Positions 1 to 45,204 of a stretch of 64,000 nucleotides of DNA are shown here, one piece after another. A model generated the notes under the pieces. It was not told the origin of the DNA, did not search any database, and was given only the letters and a program-made list of their open reading frames with translations. Within the stretch, counting starts at the first letter, position 1, and every line of letters starts with the position of its first letter. The translations under genes and the position numbers were made by a program. This stretch comes from Mustelus asterias (taxonomy: Eukaryota): assembly GCF_964213995.1 (NCBI RefSeq), contig NC_135815.1, positions 3,038,001-3,102,000 of the forward strand. Reading direction: 5' to 3'.

Positions 1-100
1 CGGGGAGAACGTGAAGACTGTACACAGACAGTGACCCGAGCCGGGAATCAAATCCAAGTCCCTGGCGCTGTGAGGCAGCAGTGCTAACCACTGTGCCGCC
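1..100 (-). mobile_element. HE1-type tRNA-derived SINE, 5' part (truncated by window edge)
   Basis: Reverse complement reads GGGCGGCACAGTGGTTAGCACTGCTGCCTCACAGCGCCAGG, the same head as the other copies in the window. Confidence 0.8.
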
Positions 101-1621
101 CTTACCTAATATGGCAGCCCACTACCTAAGGAACCCTTTAATATGGCCTCCACCACCCCAGGGAGCCCACAGCATGGGTTCTGTCCTTCCATTACTTTAA
201 GGGGTCATTGGATACTAACAGTGTTCAAAGTCCACATGTTCTTTAACACCAGCTCCCCCACTCCCCACCCCGTGACCTTTAACCATCAGACAGCTCATAG
301 CCCGGAGTGTGTGCATTATGGTACAGAAGAAATACTGGAGACTAACACAAACTGGTTAACAAGTGTAATGGATTTACATTATACAGTCTTGTGTTTCATA
401 TCAAGTGCCTGTAATAAATCATAGGAGATGGCCATTTGGCCCATCGTGCCTGTGCCAGCCCTTTGAGAGGACAATCAATTCATCCCACTCTCCTGTCCTT
501 TCCGCATAGCTTCGCAAACTTTCACTTTTATTCAACTTTCTTTCCAACGCCGCAACTGAATCTGCTTCCATCAGGTTTTTTTTGCCATTTCAGGCAGCAG
601 ATTCCAGCTCACAACAAGACGCTGTGCGAAAGGGTTTCTCCTCACCTTGCCATGTCTGCACTCATTAAGCAGTTCAGTCACATTTCTAGTCAGATGAAAG
701 GAGTTTGCGTTTTAAACCTCTGATGGAATGGAGCAGCAAAATGGATTAAAGAAAGAATGAAAGACCTGAACCACTGGATATGTCCTGTCTCAACGTGACC
801 CCATTAGATGGAGATGTACACTAATACGGCCTCCAGCTGGCAACTCCATAACCTAACTCCAATGTGTTTAATTTCTTTAATTGAAAGTTTTAGAAGTTGA
901 AAATACAGCAGGAGCTTTTGTATAAAACTAAAAACGGATAAGCAAAGCCATGGAAAATTCCAGGATGAAAGCTATTTGTGACATTGAGTATCCATATCTG
1001 TACTTACTACAATTTAAATAACTTCTCTTAGCAGCAAGCACAAGTGGCTATAGGAATAGGCAGGGATTGGGTGCACGGCCATAAAGATGATGCAGGAGGG
1101 AGAGTTTTAGATTCCTGGGGCACTGGGACTGGCACAGGGAGAGGTGGCATTTGTACGAGCCAGACTGGCTGCAGCGGAACAGGTCCGGGAGCAATTTCCT
1201 TGTGGAGCAATTTGTTTGTGCTGTTGGGGAACTTGGCAAGGGTGTGGGAAGCAGACGGAAATACCAGAGAGGAATATCAAACTCTACAGAACACTGGGAG
1301 AGACAGACAGCACTATAGCAGGAGATTGTAAGCTATTCAGTGGGTTCAGAATAAGGGAGTAACAAAGATTAAGTCAGGGCTGCTGTTGATGAATGTGAAT
1401 GTGCAGAGTGTGGTCGATGAGATTGGTGAGTTACAGGTGCAGATTACCACATGAAAGCCTGGCTATACCTAGTTCAAAGGCAGTAGGACTGGATAATAAA
1501 TATACTGCATTAAAGGTGTTTAGAAAAGGAAGAAAGATGGGGGGTGGGGGAAATGGTAGGATTGGTTAAGTAAGATGCTGCAGTGTGGAGAGACATCATG
1601 TCCCACAAGGATCAAAGACAG

Positions 1622-2230
1622 AGGGCGGAATTTTACCGGAGGAGGACGGGTCATTGAGTGTCTTTAAGACAGAGATAGATAGGTTCTTGATTAATAAGGG
1701 GATCAGGGGTTATGGGGAAAAGGCAGGAGAATGCGGGTGAGAAAAAGTCAGCCATAACTGAATGGTGGAGCAGGCTCAATGGGCCGAGTGGCCTAATTCT
1801 GCTCCTATGTCTTACGGTCACCCGTCGATGGGCCGGCGAAATCGCGCAACAGTCAAGAATCAGAATCGCCTGATTTCCCGGCTCTCGTGATCTTACGGGA
1901 GCCAGAATTCTGGCAAGGTCAGCCTCTCTGGCGAGAGGCTGAATAATGTATTTAAATTTATTGAAATGAAGATTTGCATCTGTTTAGTGAGTCCGGCGAT
2001 CAATCCTCCGGGTTCGCTTGCCTTTCTGGCCTCACCGGGAGAGGTTCTCTCCGGCGAGAAAACACCTGCTCCCCATGAATGGGGAACAGTCATCTTGGCC
2101 TCGCCGGTGGAACCGGAGGCCACTGAGGGCCCCCGGTGAGGCTGAGGGCAAGGTGGGGGTGCCCCTTGGGTAGTGCCAGCCTGGCATCTTGGCACTGCCA
2201 GCCTGGCACCTTAATAATGCCCACTGGGCA
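1622..2230. mobile_element. Degraded non-autonomous DNA transposon (Harbinger-like) with a CR1 3' tail inserted at about 1650-1815
   Basis: Starts GGGCGGAATTTTACC, similar to the terminal inverted repeat (TIR) at 23981; GC-rich body; CR1 3'-UTR motif gggccgagtggcctaattctgctcctatgtc inside. Confidence 0.4.
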
Positions 2231-2234
2231 CCAC

Positions 2235-2597
2235 CAACAAACAGTAGCAGCTGTGTGTATCATCTACAAGATGCACTGCAGGGAGTCACCACTGCTTCGT
2301 AGGCAGCAGCTTACAAACCCTCAACCATTACCATCTGGAAGGACAAGGGAACACCACCACCTGCAACTTCCCCTCCAAGCCACTCATCATCTTGACTTGA
2401 AAATACATCGGCATTCCTTCACTGTCACTGGGTCAAAATCCTGGAACGCTCTCCGTACCAGCACTGTGGATGTACCCACACCTCAGGGACTGCAATGGTT
2501 CAAGAAGGCAACTCAGCACCACCTTCTGAAAGATAACTAGAAATGAGCAATGAGCAATGAACACTGGCTGAGCCGGCGACGCCCACATCCCATCATA
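2235..2597 (+). mobile_element. 3' end of LINE family B (non-HER1 non-LTR element)
   Basis: Matches the 3' region of the longer copy at 39425-41370 (ccttcactgtcactgggtcaaaatcctggaa ... caccaccttct). Confidence 0.75.
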
Positions 2598-2798
2598 ATT
2601 TTTAGAAAGTCTGATGTCGGTATAAATTTTAAGTGCAGGAACCATTCAGTACAGGTCACACACTGCTGCCTTTTGGCTTTCTATTCATTTGCGGTTTGTG
2701 ACAGGAGGCACGCGACAGGGGGGTTGGGGGGAAGGGGGAGGGGACAGGGGGCCATAATCATGCACGCAATATGATTGAGGGTATTTGCTTCTTCCTAC

Positions 2799-3146
2799 CT
2801 CTTACTTCCACAGCGACCGTTATCTCATTGCTTTGGGATTGACTAGCGACAGAGAGTCTGTACAGTCCTGAGTCAGACAGAGTCACATTCTTCAATCTCA
2901 GGGACACATTCCCATTCCGGATCTCATGGTTACGGACCTCAGCTCTGTGCCAATAGCTGGGGTCCAGATGTCCCAGGCTGCTACTGCTCATTGTGTAATT
3001 ATAGATTGTCACCACAGTCTCCACCTTCATCCAGTACAAAGCAATGGGTCTGGATTCATCCACAGGATGGTAACTGCAGCCAATAACAAGATCTCTTCCA
3101 AGCTTCACTGTGATTTGGTCCCCCTCACAGTTAACCTTCAAATCAT
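2799..3146 (-). CDS. Ig V-set domain exon of a B7/butyrophilin-like Ig-superfamily protein
   Basis: Acceptor tgtttgttacag|AT at 3146; donor GAA GTA AGA G|gtagga at 2799; 348 nt, phase 1-1 as typical of Ig exons. Peptide DDLKVNCEGDQITVKLGRDLVIGCSY..LYW..GNVSLRLKNVTLSDSGLYRLSV..ITVAVEVR has the B-strand Cys, C-strand Trp and the GNxSLxLxNVxxxDxGxY motif. Confidence 0.88.
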
Positions 3147-3199
3147 CTGTAACAAACATGGTGTCAGATCACTGCTCGGTTTTAACCAGGGCCTCAGAT

Positions 3200-3738
3200 A
3201 TTAACAAATGTGAGGGAGTTGGGTTAACATCAGTACAGATACAGTCAGTAACACAGGGTGCTGGGGGGAGAGGGGTTACTGAGTGATAGTGTGAGGGAGC
3301 TGGATTAACATCACTACAGATACAGTCAATAACACAGGGTGCTGGGGGAGAGGGGTTACTGAGTGACAGTGAGAGAGAGTTGGATTAACATCAGTAGAGA
3401 TACAGTCAGTAACACAGGGTGCTGGGGGAGAGGGGTTACTGAGTGATAGTGTGAGGGAGCTGGATTAACATCACTACAGATACAGTCAGTAACACAGGGT
3501 GCTGGGGGAGAGGGGTTACTGAGTGACAGTGAGAGAGAGTTGGATTAACATCAGTAGAGATACAGTCAGTAACACAGGGTGCTGGGGGAAAGAGGGGTTA
3601 CAGAGTGACCGTGTGAGAGAGCTGGATTATCAGTAGAGATATAGTCAGTAACGCAGTGTGCTGGGGGGAGAGGGGTTACTGAGTGACAGTGTAAGGGAGC
3701 TGGATGAATATCAGTAGAGACACAGTCAGTAACACAGT
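3200..3738. repeat. About 80-bp minisatellite, about 6.5 units
   Basis: Unit acatcagtacagatacagtcagtaacacagggtgctgggggagaggggttactgagtgatagtgtgagggagctggatta recurring about every 80 nt. Confidence 0.92.
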
Positions 3739-4335
3739 AATCCGCGCTCCTCTGTATGTTTTGGAGACATGGACAACCTACAGCAGGCATCCGAAAGCAC
3801 TGGAGAAGTGTCACCCATGTCGCCTTCTCAACATCTTCCAAATTCAGTGGCAAGGAATATGGTCCAACAGCATCGTCCTCTCCCACATGCCCAGCGTTGA
3901 GGTGTTAATCACCCAGAACCAGCTCCGCTGAGTGGGACACGCTGTTTGTGTACCTGACAGCAGATCCCCAAAGCCACTGTTCCACCCGGAACTCAGTCCC
4001 AGCGGGAGACTGCCAGGAGACAGCGCAAACACTCTCAGGATGTCCTCAAGCAAGCCTCAAGTGATGAAACATACCCACCCACTCACGGGAGACCCTGTCA
4101 CGTATCCAAGCAAAATGTCAAAGGTTCATTCAGGATTGTGTAGAGGTGAAGTTGAGGCATTGGTGGGAGCACGCAAACCTCTCACCAACCCACCTACACA
4201 ACTCTTCAAACACCACCTGCCCAGCAGGTGGCAGAGTCCACACATGGCACATTGGATTGATCAGCCTTCTCCCAACCAGCCAACCAGAGTGGAGGCAAAT
4301 CATCCTTCATTCCGAGGGACCGCCTAAGAGGAAGA
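3739..4335 (+). mobile_element. RTE-clade LINE 3' relic
   Basis: Frameshifted peptide LYVLETWTTYSRHPKALEKCHPCRLLNIFQIQWQ / VLITQNQLR / GHAVCVPDSRSPKPLF resembles the RTE RT C-terminus. Confidence 0.75.
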
Positions 4336-4399
4336 TGGCGAGAGGGTGCTGGTGGAAGAGGGGCTCCTGAGTGACAGACAGACTGAGCCACACACTCAC

Positions 4400-4469
4400 C
4401 AACTGTGAAGCCCTGAGCAGCAGCCAGCGTTATGAAGAAATGAGCGAGGGAAATGAAGAGACGACTCAT
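4400..4469 (-). CDS. Signal-peptide exon of the Ig-superfamily gene (MSRLFISLAHFFITLAAAQGFTV)
   Basis: Acceptor cttttcatctcttacag just upstream of ATG 4469; hydrophobic leader with small residues near the cleavage region; donor GTT G|gtgagt at 4400; phase 1 joins the V exon in frame (G+AT=Asp). Confidence 0.82.
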
Positions 4470-6139
4470 TCTGCTGTAAGAGATGAAAAGTTATCAAAAC
4501 AACGAAAAATATTTCTTCAGAGTCACCATGACAGCAGCACGTCACGAGTATTACTACTCCATCTGCAATAGAAATGGCAGTGAGTTCAGTTCTCCATTTA
4601 AGTAACAGAAAAGATCTCAAGCAGAGGACAGTAAGAATCATTTCTATTAAATCGAGGACCAAGAGACAAATATTGAAGGAACAAAGTCCAAATAGCAATG
4701 GATAAGTGTCATAAACAAAACTATTTTACTTTTAAATATCATTTTTGCTCCCTCACCTTGTGTGCTCTCGTCACTTTCGTTCTTGTTAACAGTCCCCTAC
4801 CACTCAATTGCATAAAACCTCAACCAGCGGTTCAGGGGGGTGACCCACTGCCACCTTCTCAGGGTAACTAGGGATGGGCAATAAATGCCAGTGACACCAT
4901 CACCCTCAGAATGATTAAATCAATTGTGTTCTCTTAGCTGACTCACGAGTCAGTCCGGGGAATAGAATCACAGTGGCAGACAATACCCGTGACTGCTCAT
5001 AGTCTATTCGACAGGATGTTTGGGATAGTCTGTATAATAGTACAAGGCAGTCAGTAAGTCATTGCCTCCTCATGTCGTCAGCAATTTAACATGCAAGGAC
5101 TGTCTCTATGATATAAACAGTTTATACTTCCAGAAGGCATTTGGCAAGAGGGCTCTGTCCCAGGGTTCACCAGATAAAGACTCATGGTCTCGCTGGGAAG
5201 GGGAGAATACACTTGTTTATTGTAAGTTAGTCACTCCCACACACCAGTGGTCATCCTAAAACCAAATGTTCAAGCTGACCAGCAGCTGACCCTGTTCAGG
5301 AGCACGCGCCCCGGACTAATTAAACTATGTGAAACAGTAAACTCGGGAACAAATCAGACACAATTAAACCGCGAACGCCAGAAAAAAACTCATGAATCAG
5401 CAGACATGTCACAGCAGAGTATTTCAGATCAACCATGTGAGGCAGCGTGTGGAGCAGCATGAGTGATCGCATGTGCACACACGTGAGTGAGTGTGAATGC
5501 GTGTGTGAGTGAGGGAGAGCGCACATGCAATGGGTACAGAGAACGAGCGAGAGTCTGACATTATCTGTCAATGATTCATAATGCCAGTCAAAGATCAGAT
5601 GCACCAGAGGTTCCAATGTGTTCATTCTTTGCAGGAGGTGCTCAGATACAGGATGAAAAATGAATACAGTGTGGTCCAACAATGAAACAGGGATTGTGGT
5701 AACTTCCCTGGGAAACAGGCTGCATAACAACAGACTTACTGAGACAGGAGTGAACTATTCAACCCTTTGATTCAATTCCATTATTCAATTCGATCACATC
5801 TGATCTGTATCCATATCCCTTACACCTACCTAACAGAAACATACTGACCTCAGTTTCAGAATATTCAATTGACTCCCAGTGTCTACAGCTGCTTAGCAGA
5901 GAGTTTGTCAGGCTCCTATCACTATTTATGTGAAGATGTGTTCCCCCACATCACCCTCAAATGGCCTCACTCTAATTTTAACATTATTGACAAATGGAAT
6001 TTGACAGCTCAGCACAACAGAAACATGACAGAGTAAATGAAAAATGTAAAAACACACTCCCCACTGTTTCCAATGGTAAACATCTGTGTGTAGACAAGGC
6101 AATAGGATTCTAAAACAACTGGGGGAGGTAGTGGTTTTT

Positions 6140-8734: not shown

Positions 8735-9488
8735 ACATAAGAACATAAGAAATAAGAGCAGGAGTAGGCCATCTAGCCCCTCGAACCTGCCCCGCCATTC
8801 AATAAGATCATAGCTGATCTGACGTGGATCAGTACCACTTACCCGCCTGATCCCCATAACCCTTAATTCCCTTACCGATCAGGAATCCATCCATCCGCGC
8901 TTTAAACATATTCAGCGAGGTAGCCTCCACCACCTCAGTGGGCAGAGAATTCCAGAGATTCACCACCCTCTGGGAGAAGAAGTTCCTCCTCAACTCTGTC
9001 CTAAACCAACCCCCCTTTATTTTGAGTCTGTGTCCTCTAGTTTTAACTTCCTTACTAAGTGGAAAGAATCTCTCCGCCTCCACCCTATCCAGCCCCCGCA
9101 TTATCTTATAAGTCTCCATAAGATCCCCCCTCATCCTTCTAAACTCCAACGAGTACAAACCCAATCTCCTCAGCCTCTCCTCATAATCCAAACCCCTCAT
9201 CTCCGGTATCAACCTGGTGAACCTTCTCTGCACTCCCTCCAATGCCAATATATCCTTCCTCATATAAGGGGACCAATACTGCACACAGTATTCCAGCTGC
9301 GGCCTCACCAATGCCCTGTACAGGTGCATCAAGACATCCCTGCTTTTATATTCTATCCCCCTCGCGATATAGGCCAACATCCCATTTGCCTTCTTGATCA
9401 CCTGTTGTACCTGCAGACTGGGCTTTTGCGTCTCACGCACAAGGACCCCCAGGTCCCTTTGCACGGTAGCATGTTTTAATTTGTTTCC
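8735..9488 (-). mobile_element. Young 5'-truncated CR1 LINE
   Basis: ORF 8829-9551 CR1 RT C-terminus (LYRALVRPQLEYCVQYWSP..LEGVQRRFTRLIP); (ttcttatg)n tail. Confidence 0.9.
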
Positions 9489-23980: not shown

Positions 23981-25101
23981 GGGCCCCGATTTTACCATTT
24001 TCATTCGAAGTGCTGAATCTGGGCGCAATTCAGATCCGACTTGGAAATCTGCTTTCCCCCATACACACTCAGCTTGAAAAAAAAATCGCGGGTCTGAATT
24101 GCGCTGTGGGCGGGGCTTAACGTGCCCGAAACAATCAGAGCTCTGAACTGTGCATGTGCAGTTAGAAAAAGAATTGAAAATGGCGCTCCTGTCGCATCAA
24201 TCCCGGGCCGCAAAAAGCAGATAAAGTGGCCCAGGAGCGAAAAGCGGGAGCGGTGGTCCCACAGACATCACCCTCAACCCTACAACATAACTTTCTCCCT
24301 TATCCACCCACTCCCCCCCCTGCTAACCAGACCGATTGCGAGCCACTGCCCCCTTTCCCCCCCACCGATCGCCCACAAAGTGGCAGCGGACCCCCATGCC
24401 CTTGCCACCAGCCCCCCCCCTACCACCAGGGATCCATCTGGCCTCCCCCCCTACCCCCTGGCCCCCCTCCCAGACGACGATCGGGCCACCCCCCCCCCCC
24501 CAACAGAGAATGATCAGGCCTGCCTTCCCTGCCCACCCACCGCCCCCCCCTCCACCAGACGACAACCTGGCCTCCCTCTGCCCCGCCGCCCCTCCCCCCC
24601 CCAACCAGAGAGTGATCTGTCCTCCCTCCCCTGAATCCACCAGAGGTACATCTGACCCACCTCCCCCCGCCCCCCCCACCCCCACCACCAGAGAATGTTC
24701 TGGCCCGCCTCCCTCCCCATCCCCCCCCCCCCACCCACCCGGCCCCACTGATTTGAGTCAGAGAGCCGTTGGAAGCACTGAACTTACCTCTTCAGCAGCT
24801 GAAGCGGCCGAAACAGATCTTTGCCGAGCAGGTTTGTTTCGTGCCGAATCTGGACAGGTGAATGCGATGGTAAAGGGGGGAATGCTGATAAAGTTGGGTG
24901 GGCAGTTTATTAATTCAATTTAAATACATGCAAACGCATTTAAATCGTCGTTGTGCCTGTTTCGGGTGCGAATCGGATCACGGCCATTCCCAGGCCTCAG
25001 TAAAGTTGGCACCTGCACGGACGTAGGCGCAGATTGCATTAATAGCCTCACGCCCAACTTTACCATGTTTTCGCGCCCAACGCAATGGTAAAATTTGGCC
25101 C
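23981..25101. mobile_element. Non-autonomous PIF/Harbinger-like DNA transposon (1.1 kb)
   Basis: Imperfect TIRs GGGCCCCGATTTTACCATT / AATGGTAAAATTTGGCCC; 3-bp TSD ATA; no credible transposase ORF. Confidence 0.75.
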
Positions 25102-36920: not shown

Positions 36921-38282
36921 ATAGACACTGGTGTGTGGCACCAGGAGGAAGGGGGCCTCTGTACTCCCCAACCCCAGGCTCAGTACTGATCTGACTTGGT
37001 GACACAGGAGGGTCCATAGGTCCAGCAGCACGGTGCTGACCCTGAAGACCAGCTGGGCTTGGAGACGGAGGTAGGAACTGGTCTTCCCGGGCAGAATGGT
37101 GAACAGCGCATCAGGAGAAGCGCAGCGCTATAGCAGGAAGTTGTTTCACTCACCCCGAAGTCTCTGGTGAACTGAGAACCACCTTGTACACGTCGCCCAT
37201 CAACAATCGGGTTTGACGCCAACATGATTTCCCATTGGTCTGTAGCAAGATTGGAAGTCCTGACGGGACACTGGGCGGGCGGCTGTTTAATGAGCATTCA
37301 TCAGAGGCAAATGAATGCAAATATGTTCACACCTCCAGACAACAGGAAAGCCAATCCACCATTAACCCGCCACTGGGAAAATAGCAACGGGATTTTACGC
37401 TGGCGGGTTTCTGACCTTTTGGCTCCCGCTTGATTCTTCGCTCCTGTCCACCACCAAACACGCCACGGGCAAGATGGAAGGATTCCACTGTTTCCATTCT
37501 TATAGAATAGCTTCCTCAGTCCCAGTGTCAACGCCTCAAACCAGCTGTCTCCCTCATACAAACCCCACAGCTAAGATTGAGTCCCCATGATCATCTGAAA
37601 ATGCCACGGTCTTCAGTCACCCTATTCTTAATCATGGACCCCAGCAACTTCTCAACACCAACTGCCAGGCTAACTGGTCGATAATTTTCTGAATCCCCCT
37701 CCCCCGTCTCCCCAACTAATCTTCTTTATCCCAGCACAAGGCTGCAAGAGTAATCCAAACTCTATATCATTCTCACTATACTGTTCCTAAACTAGTTTTC
37801 AAATTTCCATTGCTGAACCAGGCCTTTACTTCCCGATATTGTCGGCTCCCACATGGACAATGCTAACTGGCTGCCACTGCTTTCCCCTCCACCATTCCAG
37901 AATCTCTTCACTTTCTCCTGAAACATTCCTAGGAGTCATCAAAGCATCTGGGAATCTGTGCCGAGAACATATCGTACCCACTCTTCAAAATATCAAATCT
38001 ATCAGTGCTACATACAACCCTAGCTCACCCCGCTCCTCACAATTTCTTCTCTTTTGGTCTCCTTGTCCTGTTCAGAGTCTTCACAATTACATTTGTAACT
38101 TATTGGAGATGGTAAGTTGCTCCAGACATTCTGCTAAGAAAGATGAGAGAGAGGATTCAGGGAATTATTGACCAGTTAGCCTAACATCTCTTATTGGGAA
38201 AAACTAGGATCCAAAACTGAGGATAGGGTGACTGATCACCTTGAACATTTTCAGCATGGGGTACGTAACGCTTGATTTTTAA

Positions 38283-43117: not shown

Positions 43118-43489
43118 TGTTGATTCCCCCACCTACCACGCAGGTTGAACCGAGCCTCCTCTCCTCTCCCCCTTTGGAGATGGGGACACTTGTTCTCTGC
43201 CCAGTGACGCTGAATGTCACACTGAGAACTGAACTGTAGCAACAAGAGATGGGAATGTAGCCTTGTTCACTGCACAATTCACACATGTGAATGTGGCCAT
43301 GGTGTTTGCAGTGCCTCCAGCCTTGACCTCAGTGCATTGACACAGTGCCCTTGGGGTGGGGGATAGAGATGTTGTTATTGTGTTTCCCCGCACAGGAACA
43401 ACTCAAGGATACACAGCGTCTGATTTGTAACAGTTTTAGTCTCTGCTGTGTGTGTAAGAAAGAAAGGGAAGGTCCACATTGTGCAAGGC

Positions 43490-43880
43490 TGCAGCGGCGG
43501 AGCCCCAACCCCACACACACTGCAACGTCCGCATTCCAAACCTGAGGGACGCCGCCGTTGATATATAAATGCAATCCATACCTGCCAGAGACCCCCGTCC
43601 CGTCCCGTCCCGCCAGGTAAGGAGCCCGCGCGCCGCCACCCACCTGGAAGCCGGGGCCCCTCTCGTGCGCGCGCACTCAGTCAGCGCGCACGCACGGGGC
43701 GCGCTCCCGAGAGGGGGGTCCGGCCAATCAGCGTTGGCGGGAGGGCAGGTATTTGCATACCGTGCCCGTCTCCCTCTCCTGTGGGCACTCGAAAGCCCAT
43801 TGGCCAGAGGCGGCTGTCAGTCAGAGTAGGCAGTGACCAATAGGAATGCGGTGTTGTGAGGCCAGGACCCGCCCTCCCAG
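43490..43880. promoter_or_regulatory. CpG-island promoter, probably bidirectional
   Basis: Only clearly non-repeat CpG-dense tract in the window; TATATAAA 43562; CCAAT about 43723 and 43837; ATTGG about 43799; octamer ATTTGCAT 43751; GC box CCCGCCC about 43868; splice donors pointing in both directions. Confidence 0.75.
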
Positions 43881-43966
43881 AGGCTGTGGATTGTGTCTGT
43901 CACTGGGCTGCACCCTCACATTGCTGCTCCTGTTTCTAACTGCTGTGTGTGTCTTCACACGTCCAG
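43846..43966 (+). other. Candidate first exon of the plus-strand gene (5'UTR or uORF/signal-anchor MRCCEAR..LTLLLLFLTAVCVFTRP)
   Basis: Strong donor CCAG|gtaaat at 43966 directly downstream of the promoter elements; exact start unknown. Confidence 0.55.
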
Positions 43967-45204
43967 GTAAATACTCTCCAATTCTTCTCTGCGCTCTCAC
44001 TGATGTGAAGAGAGGGGGGGGGGGGGGGGTTGATGGTGACTCTGCATTGAGGGAGACATTGGGGGCAGGTTGAAGCTATTGAAAGCTCTCTGTCTGTCTC
44101 GGTAACTGGTTCCAGCCTGTTCACACTGGCTGCTGTTCAGTCAAAGCTCTCCTCATACCTTAATCAATACACTCTGGCAATCTCAAACCACCAGAGAAAC
44201 TGCTGCCAACATCCAGCAGCTCGGCAAAAGCCGAAATCGGAAAGAAGAACAAATTATTTTTTGTTTAAAAATTGGGAGAAGTTGCATTGAAAAAAACACC
44301 TCTGGTGCTCACAGGATGTCCCAGTGCTCTTTGCAGCCGCTGTTGTGTTTTGTTATGTAGAAAACACGACAGGATTTGCACAAACAGCAGTGAGATAATG
44401 GGAGATGTTTTTATTCCTTGTCGTGTTTTGGTTGTTGTGAGTTAAACCTTCACCGGAATACTGAGAACCTGCTTTGCTTCAAAACAGCGTTCATTAGAGG
44501 TTCTGTTAACATCCACACGATTAAGGGGAAAATGGTGCCTGGGTTTAATGTCTTGTCCTGAAAGATGGCACCTCCGACAGTGCAGTAAGTTCCAGTACTG
44601 CCAGCCTTGATGTGAAGTGAGTGTTTCAGGTTGACGGCTTTTCATCAGAATCGGAAAATGTTTTATTTTTATGATATTGATTGTGGGATAAATATTGGCG
44701 AGAACTCAGGTTTTTAAGTAAGTATGGAGGCAGGGAAAAGGGGGAGAGAGAGGACAAAAAGGCGATCTGTGGCAAGCAGAATAGATTGAATGATAAAGCA
44801 AAATGGGACAGGAATATATATACTTGAGACAGAGAGATCAGTAGATTTTCTGATGTATTTGTATAGCTCGTTAATGTGATAAACATCCTAATGTGCTCCA
44901 CAGGATTCTTAGAAAACAAAATATGACACAGCCACATTAGTTAGGGCAGGTGGACAAAGGTTTGGTGAAAAAGGGAGGTTTTAAGGAGTGCCTTAAGTTT
45001 TAAGAGAGAGGTATAGAGGCAGGGAAGTTTGTGAAGGGAGTTCTAGGTCTTGACTGTTGAAAACACAACTTCTCAAATTTAAAATCAAATCCCGACCAGT
45101 TTCCTTATCACAAATTGCTCTTTTTAATGTTTTTCTCTGTCTTTCAGGAGGAAAAATCTTGTCTGTTCAATTGATTGGTTACTGATGATGTGTCACATTC
45201 TGGG

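Follow-up and report, generated by a model that had tools for sequence, protein, structure and literature searches.

Gene A and its genomic setting

The left end of the 64,000-nucleotide stretch of Mustelus asterias DNA analyzed here (the window) carries the leader and IgV exons of a gene, gene A, whose 264-amino-acid leader-V-C2-TM product is identical to M. asterias XP_078085495.1, named 'butyrophilin-like protein 2' at NCBI (the V exon is 100% identical in a protein search). An earlier note on this DNA had seen two of the four coding exons, the C2 and TM exons lying outside the window (Table 1), and had described the leader and V exons as in frame, free of stops, and cleanly spliced; this description stands, with both exons phase-1 and the reading frame open. 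A splice acceptor lies directly before the leader coding exon (4469-4400), which indicates that there is a 5' untranslated exon further upstream, and loose contig ends match the end of the leader exon (4400-4469). Intron 1 contains an 80-bp tandem repeat of ~6.4 copies (window ~3224-3737). Pfam searches of 143 of the 202 non-repeat open reading frames of the window identified no other genes, with one weak TNFR match below the cut-off.

Table 1. Positions of gene A features, and of other loci discussed in the text (window positions unless a contig or locus is named)
Feature	Position	Strand	Description
Leader (signal peptide) coding exon	4400..4469	-	23 codons + 1 base; MSRLFISLAHFFITLAAAQGFTV; phase-1 GT donor
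Intron 1	3147..4399	-	phase 1
IgV exon (P0001)	2799..3146	-	115 whole codons; AG acceptor, phase-1 GT donor
Cys6	3127..3129	-	TGT; on strand A, 17 positions ahead of Cys23; present in 27/27 family proteins
Cys23	3076..3078	-	TGC; canonical B-strand Cys; invariant in 27/27 family proteins
Trp38	3031..3033	-	canonical C-strand Trp; 27/27 family proteins; replaced in some skate-cluster transcript sequences
N-glycosylation sequons N49 (NYT), N79 (NVS), N86 (NVT)	within 2881..3000	-
Leu97	2854..2856	-	CTC, where a canonical V domain has its F-strand Cys; this residue is Leu in 24/27 and Val in 3/27 family proteins
Intron 2	1..2798	-	phase 1; extends past window position 1
C2 exon	G000:C15:3037600-3037316		beyond the left end of the window; BTN-type
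TM exon with stop codon	G000:C15:3033743-3033628		beyond the left end of the window
TRIM gene and flanking exons	L083 5983-6891, L082 7938-8288, L081 9295-9900	- (all)
Three-cysteine butyrophilin of Mustelus (L013)	G000:C8:4337330-4337653	-	MHC contig; A-, B-, and F-strand Cys

Contigs assembled from all four runs span exactly 2799-3147 and extend into both the leader exon and the C exon, which shows that gene A is spliced as modeled (leader-V-C). These exon-joining contigs constitute the expression evidence for the gene; the run types are guessed or unrecorded, with no listed run recorded as RNA, and runs X15 and X17 derive from one sample. No alternative letters are listed at the Leu97 codon (2854-2856) in the contigs of any of the four runs. 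The view of the earlier note that a base-call error is unlikely here is thus strengthened, as the spliced contigs have the same CTC codon and all 27 homologues share the pattern. For these same reasons we regard as negligible the chance that loss of the F-strand Cys is a sequencing or assembly artefact, or that gene A is a pseudogene, for which the fast rate of the V exon is the sole point.

Contig C15 is not the MHC contig: MHC class I gave 140 matches, every one of them on C8 and none on C15. Around the family, Pfam searches of 145 of 167 candidate open reading frames identified GBP exons on both sides, with GULO-like and NDK exons further to the left. A TRIM gene encoding a RING domain, two B-boxes, a coiled coil, and PRY/SPRY lies between paralogues C and A, and a PRY-SPRY exon 44 kb downstream of A, which might have been a B30.2 tail that A had lost or that had been split from it, belongs to this TRIM gene. 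An IRG GTPase neighbor, suggested by a fused Chiloscyllium model, was also discarded, as none of 43 matches is on C15. Between A and B there are CpG-rich patches (window 24001-24500, 37001-37500, and 43251-44000), which are possible promoters of untranslated first exons; a loose scan of this interval gave 12 ISRE and 0 GAS matches, without a control and with start sites not known. Elsewhere in the genome, we note a 494-residue intronless open frame with several B7/BTN-like Ig domains (L108/L111; G000:C22:12493107-12493988, minus strand).

The A, B, and C paralogues of sharks and rays

There are four related V exons on C15, those of paralogues A, B, and C together with a leader+V duplicate of C. 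Paralogue B is arranged head-to-head with A, ~76 kb leader to leader, and encodes a tail-less protein ending in WSWW; in 10/10 proteins its C domain contains an additional, invariant pair of cysteines (NCxGxSxC; L053 ~4860-5145, plus strand). Paralogue C encodes two C domains (V-C-C-TM) and a tail that is short and basic. The duplicate of C (L057 1724-2074, minus strand; leader at G000:C15:2965080) is 97% identical and recent, and no C exon for it was found in the fetched region; a 1007-residue Ty3/gypsy-type pol open reading frame lies upstream of it (L058 257-3277).

Protein searches found members of all three paralogues among sharks and rays, with A intact in 11 named genera, and no family members in Callorhinchus or bony fish among annotated proteins (best 150 representatives). 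The proposal that this is an elasmobranch molecule is thus well founded, the family proteins coming from sharks and rays of 14 named genera. In profile searches, two further family fragments have V-profile scores of ~180, and scores outside the family are 89 or less. A, B, and C form one clade with support of 99/95 (V), 95 (C, a quick tree), and 99/97 (V+C), separate from the shark butyrophilins of C8 and from exons of C21 and C17 that we take, from PDB matches and known sequences, to be CD276-, VTCN1-, and HHLA2-like. All trees were built without human sequences, and three rows without an adjacent V-C pair were dropped from the V+C tree. The phylogeny with B7 and BTN sequences that the earlier note proposed therefore gives a partial answer: the family is a clade of its own outside the BTN and the CD276/VTCN1/HHLA2-like rows, but neither the V nor the C tree supports a grouping with any named B7 (CD276, VTCN1, HHLA2, PD-L1, ICOSL, CD80/86, or B7-H6). 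A CD276-like row is the nearest to the family in the V+C tree, on a long branch (94/83). The deep branches of the trees do not resolve, and the family could be sister to the butyrophilins.

The V domain belongs to the V-set by fold. The V exon scores 42.8 bits against Pfam V-set (cut-off 26), and the AlphaFold2 (AF2) model (pLDDT 88) matches the PD-L1 V domain with a Z score of 17.7 (rmsd 2.0, 112 residues aligned) and B7-H3 with 17.1 (1.9, 110), with VSIG4 and B7-H6 tying with these as fold matches. The B-F intersheet disulfide of V-set domains is missing, with Leu or Val at the F position in 27/27 proteins; because other V-set domains lacking this bond are known (CD2, CEACAM, Siglec), V-set membership by fold stands. 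By sequence, the V exon matches B7-H4 best among PDB entries (E 3e-9), and for V+C the best single-copy matches there are BTNL8 and BTN1A1; the top Foldseek match is a BTN complex, interleaved with PD-L1, and the atlas neighbors of gene A are HHLA2- and CD276-like clusters. The original description of the product as B7/butyrophilin-like is thus supported by both fold (V-set Pfam, PD-L1 and B7-H3) and sequence (B7-H4).

How closely the family fits either group depends on the character considered. It has the IgV-IgC2 (PF22705) ectodomain of butyrophilins, and also the membrane-anchored IgV+IgC ectodomain with B7-type V sequence of the extended B7 group. It has neither the cytoplasmic heptads nor the B30.2 (PRY-SPRY) domain of butyrophilins, with the stop codon of A and B inside the TM exon, and shows neither grouping with the BTN clade nor MHC linkage, as it forms its own starred clade and MHC class I is found only on C8. 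Some accepted BTN/BTNL proteins also have no B30.2 domain. Because it lacks B30.2, lies off the MHC contig, and forms its own clade, we classify the family as B7/BTN-like but not as strict butyrophilins. It is apparently an undescribed B7/BTN branch misnamed by automatic annotation.

The C-terminus of the gene A protein is unusual, as it ends in YWSW without a single cytoplasmic residue, a TGA stop lying inside the TM exon. Ten of the 12 A proteins and nine of the 10 B proteins have such tail-less ends, as do all 12 proteins of a second set, 10 of them from short assembled contigs (1-2 kb). The stops lie 24 bases (A, L050 628-743, minus strand) and 29 bases (B, L053 ~8887-9010, plus strand) before the TM-exon splice donors. 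The TM exon is 116 bases long in A, 124 in B, and 135 in C, and past the stop of A and B another frame encodes a basic, tail-like TRWKK or TRKR; together, these sequence features suggest that the basic tail of A and B was lost by frameshift. Stop-codon readthrough has no support, and the two paralogues use different stops, TGA in A and TAA in B. With no tail, the A product cannot signal alone, and the previous term 'receptor', or a reading of co-signaling as autonomous, is not supported for a protein without either a cytoplasmic tail or a B30.2 domain. The C-terminal segment might instead be a GPI-anchor signal, with A and B lipid-anchored, given that the proteins stop with the hydrophobic segment and no charged cytosolic residue, and that several A proteins have Ala-Gly-Ser ~28 residues from the end. 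We consider this rather unlikely, as the small-residue site is not conserved (it is PEK in Heterodontus and absent in B), and the segment is 25 residues long, has Trp at both ends, and is predicted to form a single helix (239-263).

The V domain of A evolves faster than those of its paralogues, with identities between Mustelus and other genera of 46-67% for A, 63-88% for B, and 67-83% for C; the C domain of A is better conserved (63-80%). In comparison with run X2, 17 of the 18 listed changes in the V exon are non-synonymous and three more changes are unlisted, giving a pN/pS of 5.3 (P 0.05), or of 1.3 (P 0.42) if the three unlisted changes are silent. This non-synonymous excess may reflect relaxed constraint rather than selection. 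The earlier note had named an unexpressed locus with dN/dS near 1 as a finding that would refute its reading; the pN/pS of 1.3-5.3, from one related run, partly touches on this, but the frame is intact, the gene is spliced, and the cysteines are untouched. These rates also bear on the idea that A is not a lymphocyte ligand but either a pathogen-facing molecule, serving as a decoy or as a receptor that pathogens exploit, or a duplicate of B under partly relaxed constraint. Both the faster divergence of its V domain and the pN/pS values are in accord with this, as is the lack of Trp38 in five of nine V-covering sequences of the skate-containing cluster of paralogue A (Cys23 being retained). However, A is intact in its 11 named genera and spliced in all four runs, its C domain is better conserved, and the non-synonymous excess loses significance if the unlisted differences are synonymous, and we regard this idea as rather unlikely.

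In several genera, the sequences of A and B also show signs of gene conversion with each other across V residues 43-103, although chimaeric gene models could produce the same pattern. Within a genus, A and B are 98% identical over this segment in Pristiophorus, 89% in Heterodontus, and 84% in Chiloscyllium, and they group by genus (96, 95), the segment having been chosen after viewing the alignment. Residues 1-42, with both cysteines, are paralogue-specific. The Mustelus loci concerned are L053 973-1323 and window 2800-3144, and Mustelus A has diverged since.

Cysteines of the V domain and the candidate A-B disulfide

V-domain residues are numbered here with the first complete codon of the V exon as residue 1. 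Re-reading of the sequence upholds the previously reported F-strand motif (DSGLYRL, with CTC at 2856-2854), and the conserved B-strand Cys, the extra A-strand Cys, and the NYT, NVS, and NVT sequons reported with it are all present in the V exon. The 27 family proteins used for counting represent three paralogues, in 14 named genera of sharks and rays plus one further record, with P0022 (a model without a V exon) and P0023 (an ordinary chimaera BTN) omitted. None of the 27 has a Cys at the F position (its presence in orthologues is what the earlier note had said would refute its reading), and 23 have no V-domain Cys other than Cys6 and Cys23. There is no E-strand Cys in family V domains, in which the E strand reads GNVSL. 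In skate-cluster sequences P0234, P0236, P0238, P0240, and P0242, Trp38 is replaced, apparently as a polymorphism. Because Cys6 and Cys23 without an F-strand Cys occur throughout sharks and rays, which split ~270-300 million years ago, this state is older than that split.

We surveyed 547 non-family V-domain rows, set aside 388 as incomplete, and among the 159 complete domains found 122 with B and F cysteines only, 17 with A, B, and F, nine with A and B, two with A and F, and nine with F only. Of the nine A+B rows, two are fragments of paralogue B, six are repeats of one Sparus protein, and one is a zebrafish domain. The Sparus repeats also have an E-strand Cys (A+B+E without F), and other teleost patterns include A+F without B in Labeo and the A+B zebrafish domain without F (teleost ids P0096, P0154, and P0102).

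The best reading of these data is that a cross-strand disulfide between Cys6 and Cys23, connecting strands A and B, replaces the B-F bond, and on the predicted structures we regard this as probable. The comparative argument for the bond is that Cys23, which lies in the core of the V fold, is retained in every member where its partner has become Leu, together with the new neighbor Cys6; we infer that the B-strand Cys would have been kept because it is still bonded, and no V-domain Cys besides these two is invariant. DSSP strands are E3-6, E19-21, and E23-26 in the V-only AF2 model (pLDDT 88), and E27-30 and E43-50 in the full-length one. An antiparallel ladder that sets residue 6 against residue 23 suits both models, in a register read from DSSP strings; strand A (3-6) is predicted to ladder with strand B along its C-terminal half (23-26). 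Positions 6 and 23 of antibodies have the same opposed cross-strand arrangement. Of the structures offered previously, the rewired A-B disulfide is thus the better reading, with Cys6 and Cys23 kept in 27/27 proteins, and free cysteines used for dimerization are the weaker alternative. The F-strand Leu of A and of B should not be counted as independent evidence, because the segment looks homogenized between them.

A difficulty for the A-B reading is that a Cys at the same A-strand position accompanies an intact B+F pair in 17 of the 159 non-family domains, and that two domains keep A+F without B. The 17 include P0205 (Pristis XP_051899635.1), a true V-C-TM-B30.2 butyrophilin with A-, B-, and F-strand cysteines, and its Mustelus counterpart L013; here, the equivalent of Cys6 persists where Cys23 has its usual partner. 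Three core V cysteines are thus common to shark and ray in this protein, with a maximum of two bonded at once. The same conservation of an A-strand Cys with no evident intrachain partner, in these butyrophilins and in teleost-type domains, favors the alternative that Cys6, Cys23, or both are free or link two chains as a disulfide-linked homo- or heterodimer. A single unpaired Cys has persisted for a long time in CD4 D2 (PMC4354306), so that retention of a Cys is by itself no proof of a bond. Nonetheless, free or interchain cysteines seem improbable, as Cys23 is in the core, Cys6 is at a hydrophobic and normally inward position (it aligns in a profile alignment to the Val of B7-H3 EVQVP), the two co-occur in all 27 proteins and fit the cross-strand register, and chain pairing has another route, as the TM segments of most A and B proteins contain small-residue motifs and a Cys.

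If the A-B bond is real, it could be a strained, redox-labile switch opened by thioredoxin or PDI, by analogy with CD4 D2; opening would alter binding or permit swapping of strand A, and we regard this sub-case as doubtful. Strand A is an edge strand, and GBP and TRIM genes are neighbors. Cross-strand disulfides are described as metastable, and the CD4 bond is reduced by Trx, Grx1, and PDI (PMC4354306), although full conservation across sharks and rays equally fits a plain structural bond.

The three-cysteine butyrophilin is also of interest for the origin of the family. It is the best non-family match of the paralogue C V exon (E 3.4e-10), and in the V+C tree no other BTN lies closer to the family (88/94, unstarred), but it falls among other BTNs in the V-only tree; it may be a surviving intermediate. 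A more elaborate scenario would have a disulfide-migration series preserved in one genome (B-F butyrophilins, then the A+B+F butyrophilin, then the A-B family), with the A-B bond acting as a redox switch on tail-less ligands from an interferon cluster; these would bind an orphan lymphocyte receptor of sharks and be diversified by gene conversion and positive selection, but we think it unlikely that all of these hold.

Proposed working and relation to known systems

Our overall interpretation, which we hold to be likely, is that gene A is a member of a three-gene family with an F-strand Leu and a Cys6-Cys23 bond, and encodes a tail-less, membrane-anchored ligand rather than a signaling receptor. 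The product would be a glycosylated, membrane-anchored V-C2 protein with its V domain closed by the intrachain Cys6-Cys23 bond, and with Leu or Val occupying the core space vacated by the lost B-F bridge. The outward, fast-evolving GFC face would meet a lymphocyte receptor or other partner in trans, and any signal would pass through a partner chain, such as the tailed paralogue C. Prediction of an A + B complex gave a score of 0.01 with alignments not used, and is evidence neither way. Several CD28-family receptors of chondrichthyans are orphans (PMC11599192), which makes them candidate partners, but no more.

The probable lineage-wide A-B replacement, with a three-cysteine relative in the same genome, provides a small, testable series for movement of a core disulfide, and a natural template for V domains stabilized in another way. 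It also marks an apparently undescribed B7/BTN branch in the oldest lineage with adaptive immunity, and a set of candidate ligands, whether of shark gamma-delta-type TCRs or of the orphan receptors in the CD28 family. In a literature search mostly outside subscription papers, we found neither this family nor a V domain with an A-B bond in place of B-F described; the passages of PMC12841164 consulted contain no discussion of cysteines, and its tree figure may include these genes.

Among known systems, butyrophilins (BTN1A1, BTN2A1, BTN3A, BTNL3/8) share the IgV plus BTN-type IgC2 (PF22705) ectodomain, and the automatic NCBI names of family proteins are mostly 'butyrophilin-like'. The family differs from them in lacking B30.2 and the B-F disulfide, in its location off the MHC contig, in the absence of a cytoplasmic tail in A and B, and in forming a clade separate from the shark MHC-linked BTNs. 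The three-cysteine butyrophilin has a Cys at the same A-strand position as Cys6, but retains the F-strand Cys and B30.2, and is on the MHC contig. The B7 ligands CD276 (B7-H3), VTCN1 (B7-H4), PD-L1, and HHLA2 share the V+C ectodomain, and B7-H4 has a near absence of tail; however, closer canonical candidates for these ligands, with B and F cysteines, are on C17 and C21 of the same genome, outside the family. Siglec/sialoadhesin V-set domains similarly keep the B-strand Cys and lack the F-strand Cys, but they have a B-E intrasheet disulfide, whereas this family has no E-strand Cys and is unrelated.

The B-F disulfide is a hallmark of the Ig fold, and the rewiring of disulfides in Ig domains has a precedent in CD4 D2, although the A-B version is apparently undescribed. 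A bond flanking strands A and B has been described as an addition beside the canonical one (bioRxiv 2024.03.17.585361). In CD4 D2 (PMC4354306), the B-strand Cys became Leu and a redox-active C-F cross-strand bond arose, so that, as in the family, a canonical Cys was replaced by Leu and a new Cys appeared on an adjacent strand of the same sheet. The two differ in that the B-strand Cys was lost and a C-F bond gained in a C-type domain of CD4, whereas here the F-strand Cys is lost and an A-B bond is predicted in a V domain, in a pattern fixed across sharks and rays.
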